Positions 5,133-19,742 of a stretch of DNA of 64,000 nt are shown here, in pieces. Where the stretch lies: the IMG/VR virus record IMGVR_UViG_3300027971_000029, positions 60,558 through 124,557 of that record; one strand, given 5' to 3'. Position 1 is the stretch's first letter. Each line of letters opens with the position of its first letter. The translations under genes were made by a program, and so were the position numbers. This stretch comes from a virus. Taxonomy: Duplodnaviria > Caudoviricetes. Under the pieces are notes generated by a model. It was not told the origin of the DNA. It ran no database searches and saw only the letters and a list, made by a program, of their open reading frames with translations.

Positions 5133-5579
5133 TCATAGTTGTACATCTAAAGACTCCTTAAATTTCTGCCATCTCAATGCTTTTTGTTCAGTATTAGGGC
5201 GATGTTTTTTTGATATATTGTCACCATTGATTCTTGTCTTTACAGCATGACAACATGCACAGAGGGTTTGCAAATTTGCAGGATCGGCTCTTTCACCATC
5301 AGGATCGATATGGTCAATAGTCAATTGTGCATCCATGATAATGGTTGTGGTGCATTTGAAGCCCAAGCGACTATCAGTATTCTCACAATAATTTTTGCGG
5401 AATTGCTTGTAGTCCCAATCCAACATTTTATATTTTTCTTTGTGATGCCTAGAACACCGCTTATGGTATCGGCCGCCACCAAGAGAGTCTCTAGGTTGGT
5501 CACAATCGGGAACAATACACGGATTCATCTCCGCAATTTCTTCTTCACCCCATAGGGTACGAATCAATGCTATAGTCAT
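5133..5579 (-). CDS. HNH endonuclease
   Basis: LTIDHID...NLQTLCACCHAVKT HNH motif; may start at 5528. Confidence 0.8.
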   Translation of the reverse strand: MTIALIRTLWGEEEIAEMNPCIVPDCDQPRDSLGGGRYHKRCSRHHKEKYKMLDWDYKQFRKNYCENTDSRLGFKCTTTIIMDAQLTIDHIDPDGERADPANLQTLCACCHAVKTRINGDNISKKHRPNTEQKALRWQKFKESLDVQL

Positions 5580-5790
5580 TCTTCAACTCCGAAATGTTTT
5601 AAAACATATGTACCAGGGCTTGCCCATTGATGTGTATTAATTGTTGCAATATCGGCACATTCCCGCACAATCAACTCGGCAAACTTTTCTGTGTAATATC
5701 TTGGATACTGGTCATAATCAGCACCTTCATCTATCAGTTCGCCAGCATAGATTTCAGCCTGTTCGGCAAGTTGTCGAATTCGTTCATTCA
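5576..5790 (-). CDS. hypothetical protein, MNERIxxL family paralog 1
   Basis: MNERIRQLAEQA...KFAELIVREC...HFGVEE. Confidence 0.7.
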
Positions 5791-14596: not shown

Positions 14597-14828
14597 CTTT
14601 ATAATCTTCCATAAAATAATTAATGTACTTCAAAGCCTCTTCAGCCTCAGGTTCTGTGCATCCATATCGTTCAATCAAAACTGTCTTCATCTCAGCATGT
14701 TCCATATATTCAATCAGGTCATCATAGTCCCAATCGAATGTATGGTCCATGTCATACCACAGAGACAGTTTGCCGTTTGCATTATAGAATGCATACCAGC
14801 AACTATTACTCCATCTGGCGTAACTCAT
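14586..14828 (-). CDS. hypothetical protein
   Basis: MSYARWSNS.WY; coupled ORF. Confidence 0.6.
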   Translation of the reverse strand: MSYARWSNSCWYAFYNANGKLSLWYDMDHTFDWDYDDLIEYMEHAEMKTVLIERYGCTEPEAEEALKYINYFMEDYKDES

Positions 14829-15937
14829 CAGAATGCATCAAAGTTAAAGTACTTCGGTACTTCTTTTGATAGAATCACAGTGATATCATCTTTCTCAAAG
14901 ATGAATTGACCACTACTGGCATTGTACTTGACCATATTGCTATTGTTCAATGATTTCTCATGCCAACCATTTCCACTGTCATCTTCAACATCTTCATCAC
15001 CAAGAGTCTCATTTAGAAGTTTAGCGGCTTCTTTTTTGTGTTTAAACCAGTAACTAATATCAATCTCTCTTTGAGTAGACAATGGCGAACCAACCCAAAC
15101 AGATGGGCTTACTCTATCTGCTTTTCTGTCACCACGCCACACTTCGACATTGTATGATGTACCACCATCAAACTCTGCTTTGACATTCAGAATACGCATA
15201 GCCTCTTGAGGTGTTTCGTTGTAACGATTCATCTCTTCGACAACTGCTTTCAGCATGTCAAAATTGAATGATGCAAACACAGATGCAATATTCACCATAG
15301 AATCGATGTGTGCTTTGTTGGCCAAGTTATCGTTGCAGTATTCACGAATGAAATTCTCATCTAAGCCTTTGAATTCTACCATATAGAAGATACGACCAGG
15401 GCGATTTCTCATATGCTCATCTACACGCCATTTGTCGTTGCTGGTTAGCATAAACAATTTTTTAGATGTGAAGATGCCATCTAGCAATGTCAACAGTCTT
15501 TCTTGGTCTTCTCTATCATAGACCTTTTCAAACTCATCAAAGAAAACAATGCATGGTTGTTCAATAGATTGAATCAATGTATTGAATTTGTCACCAGTAA
15601 ACTCAGCATTCACTACAATGGTCGGCACACCTTGCTTAGCCAACTCAACTGAGATGTTTTTACTCAATAGCGTTTTGCCTGAGCCTTTCTCACCAACAAG
15701 CATTACACCTGTACTTTGGTCACGATTCCAGAAACTATTGATAATTCTATCAGTGTTTCTAGCGGTATCACCATATAACTTTGTGGGTAGGGTGAAGTCT
15801 TCAATGTGTTCAATGAAGAAGTTTTCGTATTGGTCTTGCTTTACAACATAGTTACCAGCTGGTAACTGCTCATGCAAATCCATCGATTCTTTGGTCGCAA
15901 TACGGAATGTATTGCCTGATTTCATGTAGTAACTCAT
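14828..15937 (-). CDS. AAA+ ATPase
   Basis: Walker A GEKGSGKT, Walker B FFDEFEK, NRPGR arginine finger. Confidence 0.9.
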   Translation of the reverse strand: MSYYMKSGNTFRIATKESMDLHEQLPAGNYVVKQDQYENFFIEHIEDFTLPTKLYGDTARNTDRIINSFWNRDQSTGVMLVGEKGSGKTLLSKNISVELAKQGVPTIVVNAEFTGDKFNTLIQSIEQPCIVFFDEFEKVYDREDQERLLTLLDGIFTSKKLFMLTSNDKWRVDEHMRNRPGRIFYMVEFKGLDENFIREYCNDNLANKAHIDSMVNIASVFASFNFDMLKAVVEEMNRYNETPQEAMRILNVKAEFDGGTSYNVEVWRGDRKADRVSPSVWVGSPLSTQREIDISYWFKHKKEAAKLLNETLGDEDVEDDSGNGWHEKSLNNSNMVKYNASSGQFIFEKDDITVILSKEVPKYFNFDAF

Positions 15938-16510: not shown

Positions 16511-16777
16511 TTATTTGAATATTGCAGACCACTTCTGCAATTTTTGTCGTTTAAGACCTGATGCATTCAGTAATTCTTCTCGGTTAATCATACCTGATTC
16601 AACCATCAATTCAATCATGCAATGCAAGTCACCTAACTCTTCAGTTAATCGTTGCTTATTTGTACGCTCATTGTACATTTCATTTAGACCAAATCGGAAA
16701 CACTTGCTAATAGCCTGTGTGACCTCTGCACATTCTTCCTGTGCAATCAACATAATTTCTCTATCAACATCATTCAT
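16511..16777 (-). CDS. MazG-like NTP pyrophosphohydrolase
   Basis: EECAEV..AISK..RFG...L.EELGDL. Confidence 0.8.
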   Translation of the reverse strand: MNDVDREIMLIAQEECAEVTQAISKCFRFGLNEMYNERTNKQRLTEELGDLHCMIELMVESGMINREELLNASGLKRQKLQKWSAIFK

Positions 16778-16835
16778 TGTGCTTTCTCCTAATGAATGCA
16801 TTATAACACAACCACACAGACTTGTGTGGCAATAA

Positions 16836-16919
16836 TGGTGCCCCAAGAGAGACTCGAACTCTCAATCCTTTCGGCACTGGTTTCTAAGACCAGCGTGTAT
16901 ACCATTCCACCATCGGGGC
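16836..16919 (-). tRNA. tRNA-Leu(TAG)
   Basis: loop CTTAGAA, long variable arm, CCA. Confidence 0.93.
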
Positions 16920-16946
16920 ATAAATTTGCATTGCTTTTAAATTATA

Positions 16947-17141
16947 TTCAACATCTCGTAGCCAGGATTCTGTTTTTACCCTAACATTAATCTTTGCCAC
17001 AACCCGAATCAATAGCGCAAGTGTTGCCTGACTCTGTTTGTGTTGCTTGTTATATCACGGTAGTTTAATGCTTTCGCTCCTACACACACTTGCCACAAGT
17101 CCTGAACTTCCTCTGTTACCAGCGTTAGGTCGGATGTTGAA
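16947..17141 (-). ncRNA. rnpB: minimal RNase P RNA-like gene (about 195 nt)
   Basis: P1 TTCAACATC/GATGTTGAA; P2 CCTAAC/GTTAGG; mini P3 CTG-GTAA-CAG; CR-I GAGGAAGTTCAGGA; CR-IV AGATTAATG; CR-V AACAGAATCCTGGCTA, complementary to CR-I (P4). Confidence 0.8.
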
Positions 17142-17147
17142 ATTCTT

Positions 17148-17223
17148 TGGTGCTACCTAGAGGAATCGAACCTCTTTCAATGGTTCTTCAGACCACCGCT
17201 ATGACCACATCAGCTAAAGTAGC
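17148..17223 (-). tRNA. tRNA-Phe(GAA)
   Basis: loop CTGAAGA, CCA. Confidence 0.9.
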
Positions 17224-17224
17224 A

Positions 17225-17298
17225 TGGTGCTCTCACCGAGAATTGAACTCAGAATTCATCCTTACCAAGGATGTGTTATACCACTTAACTATGAGAGC
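17225..17298 (-). tRNA. tRNA-Thr(GGT)
   Basis: loop TTGGTAA, CCA. Confidence 0.9.
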
Positions 17299-17305
17299 GA
17301 TTGAA

Positions 17306-17502
17306 TTTGTAAGTAGTTTCACCCATATTATTGAAACCATTCACCTTAGTATATAAAGCCGGCAAGGTCTCGGTACGCCACTTGGGATACTCAACAAAGG
17401 TGCTCCGATGCGTTTACGGGACTCGAACCCGTCCTTCTTTTTCATTAGTTGGCTCTTCGAAGAAGCCTTCTAGCGAGTCTTTCTCTTGCTGACACTTACA
17501 AA
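17306..17502 (-). ncRNA. unidentified structured RNA (about 197 nt) with an internal T-arm-like hairpin
   Basis: terminal stem TTTGTAAGT/ACTTACAAA, UUCG hairpin, ACGGG-TTCGAGT-CCCGT, CACCTT/AAGGTG, GTTTCA/TGAAAC. Confidence 0.6.
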
Positions 17503-17505
17503 ACT

Positions 17506-17580
17506 TGGTACCTTGTGACGGGATTGAACCGCCGACCTTCTCCGTGTAAAAGAGTTACTCTACCGCTGAGTTAACAAGGC
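17506..17580 (-). tRNA. tRNA-Val(TAC)
   Basis: loop TTTACAC, CCA. Confidence 0.9.
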
Positions 17581-17583
17581 AAA

Positions 17584-18159
17584 TTACATAGTGGGACCGT
17601 TGCCGTTTTTAAAGCCAACGGAACCACCTTCTTCATTGATTCTCTTAATCACATCTTCAAAGAGAATTGGTCTAAAATCTGTTTGTTCTACACAAACACA
17701 ATGGTAACGGGTGTCAATTTCATATTCACCCCACACTTCAGTCTTCACACGGTTTGAATGGGTGTGACCATGAATGTTTGTACCAAAACGACCTAGACTG
17801 TCACTATGAATTGGGATATGACTAAGAATCATTCCATTCATTACATGATATGCTCTCAATTCACGAAAATGAATTCTGTATTCATCATCACGAAAGATAT
17901 CATGGTTACCACGAATCAGAACTTTATCACCATTCAGCCTGTGCATGATGCTAAGTGCCTTTCGGTTGATTACAACATCACCGAGGTGGTACACTTTATC
18001 ATTTGGTCGAACAGTTTCGTTCCATCGCTTGACCATTTCTTCATCCATATCTTCTGGATTGTCCCATGGTCTTAATTTCGTTACTCCGTCATCACGAAGA
18101 AACTTACACACTCCAGCATGACCAAAATGTGTGTCACTTGTTAAAAATACTGAAGGCAT
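17584..18159 (-). CDS. calcineurin-like metallophosphoesterase
   Basis: SDTHFGH, HLGDV, GNHD, HGHTH motifs. Confidence 0.88.
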   Translation of the reverse strand: MPSVFLTSDTHFGHAGVCKFLRDDGVTKLRPWDNPEDMDEEMVKRWNETVRPNDKVYHLGDVVINRKALSIMHRLNGDKVLIRGNHDIFRDDEYRIHFRELRAYHVMNGMILSHIPIHSDSLGRFGTNIHGHTHSNRVKTEVWGEYEIDTRYHCVCVEQTDFRPILFEDVIKRINEEGGSVGFKNGNGPTM

Positions 18160-19253: not shown

Positions 19254-19742
19254 CTACGCCTCAGCTAATTCTTGTTCAGCCAAGATTCTTTTCAGTCTAT
19301 CAGCACAGAAACTTGCGGCTGGCGCATCTGGCTTGACCATTGGTGTCACATTACATGTACCTTTGATATAACCAATTGCTTGTTGCACTACGCAAGAACT
19401 TCCGTGTTCATCAGATTTGTTCAAGTCCAAATGAACTTCAACATGTCTATCTTCAAGCACATCGGCTAACGATTGAAACAATTCTGAAACCTTGTAGACT
19501 TCAGTCATCAATCTCATAGCAGGTTTGCTTTTCTTGTGGTCATAATCTAATTCACGAGTTAAAAAACCGAAAATCTTACAGCCATGGCGTCCATCAATAT
19601 GAACTACAACAGCCAATGCATAATCTGCATACCACACGCCGTCAACTCTAACTCTTTCTGAATCAGCACCGAGATATACTTTCGTGTCAGGTCCTTGATT
19701 CACAATGAATTGTTTCACTTTTTCGATTTCAAAATTTTTCAT
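19254..19742 (-). CDS. RNase H-like YkuK (DUF458) family protein
   Basis: VYLGADS...VVVH..G..G...RLMTEVY...VEVHLD...KP.A.AAS..AD. Confidence 0.8.
   Translation of the reverse strand: MKNFEIEKVKQFIVNQGPDTKVYLGADSERVRVDGVWYADYALAVVVHIDGRHGCKIFGFLTRELDYDHKKSKPAMRLMTEVYKVSELFQSLADVLEDRHVEVHLDLNKSDEHGSSCVVQQAIGYIKGTCNVTPMVKPDAPAASFCADRLKRILAEQELAEA

Follow-up and report, generated by a model that had tools for sequence, protein, structure and literature searches.

A candidate miniature RNase P RNA gene within the tRNA array of a freshwater T4-like phage

RNase P RNA, a ribozyme trimming new tRNAs at their 5' end and reading the tRNA elbow with its specificity domain (S-domain), is regarded as a cellular housekeeping gene. 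In a 64,000-nt stretch of viral DNA (in the following, the window; the 3' 64 kb of the 124.6-kb IMG/VR virus record IMGVR_UViG_3300027971_000029, estimated to be 76% complete), the 195-nt interval 16947-17141 on the minus strand is probably a miniature RNase P RNA gene that derives from the bacterial type A form and serves the processing of the phage's pre-tRNAs in conjunction with the RnpA protein of the host. Covariance models, compensatory changes in a family of related viral elements and the genomic neighborhood demonstrate homology, architecture and linkage to tRNA arrays, and support the identity of the element as a viral variant of RNase P RNA lacking the S-domain, from which we infer its function.

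Match to RNase P models

A prediction made earlier for this DNA (the original prediction) had listed a set of RNase P RNA motifs within 16947-17141(-), and each of them was found in its place when reading the sequence. In a permissive Rfam scan of a 231-nt interval against 4227 families, the archaeal RNase P model RF00373 matches exactly the element over the full length of the model (positions 1-288), at 33.6 bits and an E-value of 2.2e-8. The helices P1, P2, P3, P5 and P15 as well as the conserved regions (CR) CR-I, CR-IV and CR-V all lie on the matching model elements, with GAGGAA, AG..AAUG and ACAGAA falling on conserved columns, and most columns of the S-domain are deleted. Such an E-value together with the correct order of elements is more than chance. 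Hence, the support by covariance models on which the original prediction had been made dependent does exist, for the window element as well as for relatives matching models of the RNase P clan. Among the clan members, RF00373 and not RF02357 scores best for the window. Moreover, CR-IV aligns to CR-IV of the Rfam model and of Klebsiella rnpB, the alignment to the latter covering the segment from CR-IV and P2 to CR-V.

Family of related elements and covariation

Comparing the 195 nt with 50,697 GenBank phage records by blastn gave no match, and a 701-nt query matched GenBank phages through the flanking tRNAs only. Scanning IMG/VR for the CR-V 16-mer resulted in 23 loci (numbered here with the prefix L), all having the P4 3' strand in common by construction and most of them also showing CR-I and CR-IV at the right distances. 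Four of these loci (L005, L009, L011, and L012) are without the other motifs and were discarded as chance matches. An exact CR-I...CR-IV pattern scan of IMG/VR returned nothing, and a stricter pattern only re-found five known loci. Since the loci of the CR-V scan share the P4 3' strand, a second IMG/VR search employed the P5-3'/P15 segment, which resulted in 56 loci, and in loci from this search the P4 strands co-vary. Several of the 56, for example, L027, L039, L044, L046, L053, L056, L067, and L069, show no match to the covariance model described below and were likewise treated as chance.

An alignment of 10 compact members is 98% paired, with 29 of 55 pairs changed on both sides compared to 2-5 in slid controls. 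From these members, the covariance model R1 was built using nested helices only, thus excluding the P4 and P6 pseudoknots. R1 gives 57 matches in 71 sources, comprising the element as the sole match in the window (220 bits) and 56 related elements. In the 50 distinct rows, 95.3% of the cells are paired and 49 of the 54 pairs show double-sided change versus 18-29 for slid partners, with 539 double-sided changes across these distinct sequences. The covariation score amounts to 0.507 in comparison with about 0.05, a value of 0.507 being reached by none of 500 shuffles. As the alignment was fitted to nested helices, the counts for these lean toward structure, and the pseudoknots are the cleaner test. 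In P4, which is outside the aligning model and whose covariation in homologues had been the other point on which the original prediction was to stand or fall, 99.7% of the cells are paired and 6/8 pairs are compensatory; in P6, also outside the aligning model, all seven pairs are. In addition, the unpaired core (GAGGAA, U37, CAA, GGU, AG..AAUG, ACAGAA, and A183) is near-invariant, even in members only 53-60% identical to the window copy. The fold is under purifying selection.

At the permissive threshold, RNase P-clan matches were obtained for 6 of 14 related loci, five of them at the coordinates of the R1 match. The bacterial class A model RF00010 scores 53.5 bits (E-value 1e-13) with L058 and 42.7 bits (E-value 5e-10) with L013, both at the R1 coordinates, where RF00373 gives 43.9 bits for L017, 35.8 bits for L001 and 28.1 bits for L015. 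On a 57-kb viral contig, a 325-nt RNA (L008:2103-2427(+)) reaches 79.6 bits with RF00010 (E-value 1.6e-22; gathering score 100). It shares its P4 strands with the window element, is not matched by the compact-form model R1, and seems to be a fuller-length phage form of RNase P RNA. None of the 17 longer-form loci attains a gathering score, the relatives showing 28-80 bits versus required values of 84-100. Every member checked fell short of all Rfam gathering scores, and standard annotation therefore does not see the family.

The longer relatives (229-344 nt) mainly differ by unrelated inserts of 36-152 nt in the apical loop of the S-domain stub, some of them also by a longer P3 or P18-like hairpins. 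This stub loop appears as an insertion hot spot. In L061, L065, L045, L036, L041, and L033, a 36-nt insert consists of two copies of a direct repeat of about 14 nt, and mutually unrelated inserts of 115-139 nt are found at the same position in L031, L048, L040, L030, L006, and L023. In the closest relative of the window element (L029:341-682(-), 93.7% identity over 191 core columns), an insert of about 150 nt replaces the GAAA loop of the stub, and like forms are present at L068:5484-5826(+) and L034:338-681(+). This insert comprises an 11-bp stem extension and a tRNA-like module with an acceptor-like stem, a T-arm and a 3' CCA; ARAGORN classifies it neither as tRNA nor as tmRNA, and Rfam sees the T-arm only. 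It could mimic a substrate in cis, represent a nested gene that can be excised, or take the place of the lost S-domain.

Architecture of the 195-nt element

Based on its sequence and on the family alignment, the element retains the complete catalytic domain, that is, P1-P5 including P4 with its bulged U, CR-I, CR-IV and CR-V, P15/P16 with the GGU motif and a lengthened P6, and has lost P18 and all of the S-domain except for a 24-nt stub (Table 1). Element positions refer to the minus strand, position 1 being window position 17141. The helices have lengths of 9 bp (P1), 6 bp (P2), 3 bp (P3), 5 bp (P5), 4 bp (P15), and 6 bp (P16), and the P6 pseudoknot of 7-8 bp runs from just 3' of P5 into the loop of P16; GCAAGUGU (49-56) is complementary to ACACUUGC (118-125). 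P15 and P16 are compensatory in 4/4 and 6/6 pairs, respectively. Relatives bear longer P3 inserts at the same position. With 195 nt, the 24-nt stub in place of P7-P14 and the lack of P18, the description of the element as a half-size RNase P RNA with strongly reduced S-domain in the original prediction proved to be accurate. The stub, located between P5/P6 and the P5 3' strand, is what is left of the P7-P14 region harboring the site for the T-stem-loop, and P18 is absent, with only 4 nt (GCAA, 145-148) between the P15 3' strand and CR-IV.

Table 1. Coordinates of the putative RNase P RNA gene, its structural elements and the adjacent tRNA genes.
Feature	Element position	Window position	Strand	Remarks
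Whole miniature RNase P RNA gene, P1 to P1	1-195	16947..17141	-	195 nt; RF00373 full-length match; R1 220 bits
P1 5' strand UUCAACAUC	1-9	17133..17141	-	9/9 pairs with P1 3' strand compensatory, 95.8% paired
P2 5' strand CCUAAC	13-18	17124..17129	-	6/6 pairs compensatory, 98-99.6% paired
P3, 3-bp hairpin CUG/CAG with GUAA tetraloop	20-29	17113..17122	-	3/3 pairs compensatory
CR-I and P4 5' strand GAGGAAGUUCAGGA	29-42	17100..17113	-	bulged U37 = window 17105
P5 5' strand	43-47	17095..17099	-	4/5 pairs with 17046-17050 compensatory
P6 pseudoknot 5' strand	49-55	17087..17093	-	7/7 pairs compensatory, 81-89% paired
S-domain stub, 24 nt	59-82	17060..17083	-	4-bp stem, GGAG, 2-bp hairpin with GAAA loop; stem pairs compensatory
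P5 3' strand	92-96	17046..17050	-	followed by CAA linker
P5/P15 linker CAA, 3 nt	97-99	17043..17045	-	invariant, 50/50
P15 5' strand, A-rich internal loop, P16 5' strand	100-103 (P15), 108-113 (P16)	17029..17042	-	
P6 pseudoknot 3' strand, inside P16 loop	119-125	17017..17023	-	partner of P6 5' strand
P16 3' strand, L15 GGU, P15 3' strand	131-136 (P16), 138-140 (GGU), 141-144 (P15)	16998..17011	-	GGU = window 17002-17004
CR-IV AGAUUAAUG	149-157	16985..16993	-	1-base overlap with P2 3' strand; AG..AAUG pattern conserved
P2 3' strand GUUAGG	157-162	16980..16985	-	partner of P2 5' strand
CR-V AACAGAAUCCUGGCUA	168-183	16959..16974	-	P4 3' strand = 16960-16967
P1 3' strand GAUGUUGAA	187-195	16947..16955	-	partner of P1 5' strand
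tRNA-Phe(gaa), upstream neighbor		17148..17223	-	CCA end 6 nt before element
tRNA-Leu(tag), downstream neighbor		16836..16919	-	start 27 nt after element

The nucleotides of the core are conserved almost throughout. Of 47 sequences, 46-47 keep GAGGAA of CR-I and all have U37; of 48, 42-48 keep ACAGAA of CR-V and all have A183. The GGU of L15, part of a GGGU at 137-140, is present, counting rows with a letter at the position, in 46/48 (G138), 44/47 (G139) and 45/47 (U140), and the GGAG of the stub in 44-46 of 46 sequences, with a conserved single-stranded tract following the GAAA-capped hairpin. A bulged U in P4 had been part of the original prediction and is indeed present, the exact register, however, had to be revised. 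The two adjacent U's are indistinguishable in the window sequence alone, and it is the family that fixes the bulge at the invariant U37, with position 36 pairing with 180 (UG in 32, CG in 13 and GC in 1 sequence). No open reading frame (ORF) spans the element and its variability within the family lacks a 3-base or codon periodicity, indicating that it is not coding.

Genome setting and linkage to tRNA genes

The source virus is a freshwater T4-like phage. Its DNA polymerase belongs to the T4-type gp43 family and is about 51% identical to cyanomyovirus polymerases (tblastn), further phage replication genes in the window encode a DnaB-like helicase and a ribonucleotide reductase, and near-identical DNA is present in freshwater and lake metagenomes of many studies. 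A T5-like phage, as first guessed from the length of the polymerase, is ruled out by the gp43 type. All tRNA genes of the window, 29 in number, are on the minus strand between 16341 and 22468 and encode the CCA end, and 14 of the 28 spacers between them are not longer than 9 nt. The element sits in a gap of 228 nt between tRNA-Phe and tRNA-Leu, so that its assignment to a phage and to the interior of a tRNA array, made in the original prediction, is borne out by the polymerase and by the tRNA genes 6 nt upstream and 27 nt downstream.

The same setting is found in the family. For 53 elements (52 full or near-full R1 matches plus the one from phage DLP6, see below; duplicates kept, window and the truncated matches L042, L064, L007, and L060 left out), a same-strand tRNA gene is located within 100 nt in 39 cases, 23 of which have one on each side, and wherever a locus holds tRNAs, all of these are on the strand of the element. 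Within the window, a minus-strand promoter-like site was not found between the element and its tRNA neighbors, the nearest one being located upstream (18308-18280). Downstream of tRNA-Leu, there is a weak hairpin of terminator-like type (16830-16811).

Protein genes within or beside the array encode a 191-aa phosphoesterase (phrog_547, 17584-18159(-)), a 162-aa protein of unknown function (phrog_11311, 19254-19742(-)) and a 369-aa ATPase (phrog_2376, 14828-15937(-)); a metallophosphoesterase is also found in the tRNA region of Stenotrophomonas phage DLP6. Other large non-coding RNAs are frequent near the tRNA arrays of contigs bearing a miniature RNase P RNA, including GOLLD (175.8 bits), tmRNAs and permuted tmRNAs (L055:2524-2979 and 5446-5667, L038:7153-7462, L015:1020-1390, L062:635-987, and L017:1996-2307).

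Occurrence in cultured phages and metatranscriptomes

Among cultured phages, Stenotrophomonas phage DLP6 possesses a member of the family (KU682439.2; the genome paper, PMC5349666, gives accession and tRNA span). The R1 match of 245 nt (122.8 bits, E-value 4e-39; L077 13775-14019, about 105,774-106,018 of the record) is unannotated and lies between the CDS AAY80_165 and tRNA-Arg-CCG, directly upstream of the latter. In the main text of the genome paper, the term RNase P does not occur (PMC5349666).

In four metatranscriptome runs, available as contigs only, the region 16600-17600 is represented by contigs over the flanking tRNAs and other parts and not over the core of the element; a single contig of low depth (2.3; X16, record 9, 17089-17303) extends from tRNA-Thr/Phe into the first 53 nt of the element. 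Absence, strand or ends cannot be read from contigs, which may moreover stem from DNA carry-over, and they allow no inference on expression either way. A contig of run X17 (depth 4.48, 50 nt on its shorter side, 92% likeness) joins 16941 to 17147 with two other letters between, so that precisely the element with its spacers is missing. The contig points to a related phage that lacks the ribozyme gene and in which tRNA-Phe and tRNA-Leu are adjacent, albeit another organism may be the source.

Proposed function and alternative explanations

We consider an active, RnpA-assisted ribozyme for 5' processing of pre-tRNAs the likely role of the element, with transcription, catalysis and protein partner deduced from the following features. 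As no promoter was found between the element and the adjacent tRNA genes, it is probably part of a polycistronic tRNA transcript. It would be co-transcribed with the neighboring tRNAs and be freed by the same cuts that release tRNA-Phe and tRNA-Leu. Then, the RNA would assemble with host RnpA and cleave the 5' leaders and inter-tRNA spacers of the densely packed, CCA-encoding phage tRNA precursors, presumably recognizing these substrates via acceptor stem, CCA and leader and not via the T-loop elbow. The conserved GGU of L15 pairs with the 3'-CCA of tRNAs, and with CCA encoded in all 29 tRNA genes the potential substrates match the motif. RnpA (PF00825) was found neither in the record of the window (76% complete) nor in four complete and one partial related phage genomes of 161-470 kb, which fits with a protein partner, if needed, that is probably the RnpA of the host.

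Several results weigh against this assignment. The score of 33.6 bits is far below the RF00373 gathering score of 84, a gathering-score Rfam scan lists only tRNAs in the window, and a profile search of the window's own record with RF00373 or RF00010 gave no match at E <= 10. As RF00373 did score 33.6 bits on the 231-nt interval, such a record-wide first pass can obviously miss the family and its negatives are weak. A match to the RNase P clan is absent in 8 of the 14 related loci at the permissive threshold, and Rfam gave no RNase P match for L029 and for the DLP6 element either, the latter at E <= 1. R1 applied to 10 curated bacterial rnpB genes matched 0/10 with default filters and only a 5.9-bit CR-IV/CR-V fragment with filters off. 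Likewise, a profile hidden Markov model (HMM) of bacterial rnpB found nothing in the window (nhmmer), and the HMM of the phage family gave only non-significant E-values of 0.08-2.3 with rnpB loci, all five weak matches lying inside rnpB. The failed reciprocal recovery can be attributed to the narrow seed of R1 (effective sequence number 1.21) and to the S-domain insertion of about 170 nt, and is nevertheless a failed test. Consequently, the assignment to RNase P is based on structure-aware scoring and the full set of diagnostic features and not on overall sequence similarity. The folding energy of the single sequence is not significant (z = -1.70, 11/200 shuffles fold equally well), a result to be expected of an RNA with pseudoknots and evidence neither way. 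R1 did not match the cultured cyanomyoviruses S-BM3, S-PRM1, and S-SCSM1, the nearest polymerase relatives, and this empty result shows little beyond that the gene is not universal in the phage group. Finally, P3 has only 3 bp, and an engineered E. coli ribozyme without S-domain is about 100-fold slower than the wild type in the experiments on this construct reported in PMC5839562.

The last point leads to the main rival explanation, a homologue of RNase P RNA that is catalytically inert and acts as decoy or regulator, binding host RnpA or pre-tRNA and thereby re-routing or throttling the host's RNase P during infection. A C-domain contacting RnpA is kept and an RnpA gene was not found in the phage, a rate penalty of about 100-fold should follow from S-domain loss according to the deletion data in PMC5839562, and the RNase P-like RNA of orthopoxviruses, for which pre-tRNA processing in vitro was not observed, is discussed as possible decoy in the section devoted to it in PMC3001073. 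However, a decoy would need neither the near-invariant features of the active site (U37, ACAGAA, A183, and the CCA-binding GGU) nor a covarying P6 that stabilizes the catalytic fold, and the close association with CCA-encoding tRNA arrays on the same strand fits better with processing. Hence, we regard a role as decoy or regulator as unlikely. Alternatively, an active ribozyme might do without host RnpA, functioning alone or with an unrecognized phage protein, and might address other substrates such as tmRNA-like and tRNA-like RNAs or mRNA leaders instead of chiefly tRNAs. This would be in line with the tmRNA, permuted tmRNA or GOLLD RNA near the copy on related contigs, the tRNA-like module within the stub loop of some relatives and the many neighboring ORFs without known function. 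In contrast, the protein-facing CR-IV/CR-V/P2-P4 region is of the bacterial type A form, making host RnpA the obvious partner, tRNAs are the constant neighbors, and a candidate partner protein from the phage was not identified. A ribozyme independent of RnpA is therefore quite improbable.

A non-functional element, be it the decaying remnant of an rnpB gene captured from a host or a structured spacer without relation to RNase P that resembles the core by chance, is strongly disfavored and in our view highly improbable. The sub-threshold Rfam score and the failure of R1 and HMMs to link the element to bacterial rnpB would be compatible with such an origin. A relic, however, would hardly keep 95% pairing through the 539 double-sided changes in 50 distinct sequences and in two pseudoknots, nor core nucleotides that are invariant down to 53-60% overall identity. 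Chance, on the other hand, would neither yield an E-value of 2.2e-8 with the order P1-P2-P3-CR-I-P5-P15-CR-IV-CR-V nor E-values of 5e-10 to 1e-13 versus bacterial class A for the aligned relatives.

Novelty and significance

A description of a phage-encoded RNase P RNA was not found in targeted full-text literature searches, whose coverage is incomplete, with most subscription journals and supplements outside, so that a prior description is possible. The nearest item in print among the texts retrieved is the orthopoxvirus 'RNase P-like RNA' (PMC3001073), and in the passages dealing with phages in a 2024 review on RNase P these are mentioned only as sources of substrates (PMC11143913). A conserved viral family would extend the translation-related functions of phages, such as tRNAs and tmRNA, to tRNA maturation, and would represent a natural experiment on the minimum size of a bacterial-type RNase P. 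In this respect, the parts kept and lost agree with deletion studies on the E. coli ribozyme, in which, as far as described in the corresponding sections of PMC5839562, P6 is needed and P18 becomes dispensable once the S-domain is gone. The reduced mode of substrate recognition also bears on how RNase P handles multimeric tRNA precursors, and with the DLP6 member in a cultured phage, biochemistry and genetics are directly accessible.

Generalizing from the window element is more speculative. Conceivably, yet with somewhat less than even probability, a minimal ribozyme that evolved naturally from bacterial RNase P RNA and is devoid of the S-domain belongs to the gene set of tailed phages with large tRNA arrays. 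It would use the RnpA of the host and be adapted to CCA-encoding polycistronic precursors in which the tRNAs are tightly packed, rendering the tRNA supply of the phage independent of host rnpB levels, and its stub loop would dock add-on modules including the tRNA-like domain in the closest relative. Minimal RNase P would then have arisen in nature a second time, independently of archaeal type T, and a catalytic RNase P RNA would be known from a virus for the first time.

Comparison with known RNase P RNAs

Bacterial type A RNase P RNA (rnpB, M1 RNA; RF00010) shares with the phage element the order P1, P2, P3, CR-I/P4, P5, 3-nt linker, P15-P16 with GGU, P6, CR-IV, CR-V and P4 3' strand as well as the bulged U in P4, and the type A model gives 42.7-79.6 bits for the relatives L013, L058, and L008. 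In contrast to the 10 bacterial genes checked (363-427 nt, 257-339 bits with RF00010), the phage element has only 195 nt, lacks P7-P14 and P18, possesses a P3 of 3 bp and a P6 lengthened to 7-8 bp, stays below the gathering score of the family and is encoded by a virus. Type A and type B RNase P RNA can be told apart by P6 (as outlined in the structural part of PMC5839562); as the pseudoknot from the P5/P7 region to the P16/P17 loop is present, the element shows a feature of type A rather than type B.

The archaeal type T of Thermoproteaceae (RF02357), described by Chan, Brown and Lowe in 2012 (PMC3579882), is likewise a natural RNase P RNA of about 200 nt with a conventional catalytic domain and a mostly lost S-domain. 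P6 is modeled as present and P18 is absent in both RNAs (P18 according to the pertinent statement in PMC5839562). However, type T is diagnosed by a P2 of 3 bp and a P5/P15 linker contracted to 2 nt, as specified in the diagnostic description in PMC3579882, whereas P2 of the phage element has 6 bp and its linker 3 nt (CAA, 50/50). Given the absence of these diagnostics and the bacterial-like core, we read the phage element as an independent, convergent reduction of a bacterial type A RNA in a bacteriophage lineage.

A laboratory counterpart is the E. coli C-domain without S-domain ('Eco CP RPR', Mao et al. 2018), which, according to the sections on this construct (PMC5839562), is active whether the C5 protein (RnpA) is present or absent and is stimulated by it, requires a 'P6-mimic' pairing and has no further benefit from P18, which is dispensable. 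Similarly, the phage RNA is a catalytic domain without S-domain that keeps P6 and lacks P18. In contrast to the laboratory deletion with its about 100-fold lower rate compared to wild type, it is a natural RNA maintained in evolution and shows a longer P6, a conserved stub (GGAG and single-stranded tract) and a minimal P3, which may compensate for the lost parts.

With the RNase P-like RNA of orthopoxviruses (camelpox; Jarrous and Gopalan 2010, PMC3001073), the phage element has in common that it is encoded by a virus and resembles RNase P RNA. The orthopoxvirus RNA, however, belongs to a eukaryotic virus and, going by the account in that article's section on it, shows only 'some secondary structure similarity', does not process pre-tRNA in vitro and is not linked to viral tRNA genes, whereas in the phage RNA the conserved core is complete and supported by covariation.

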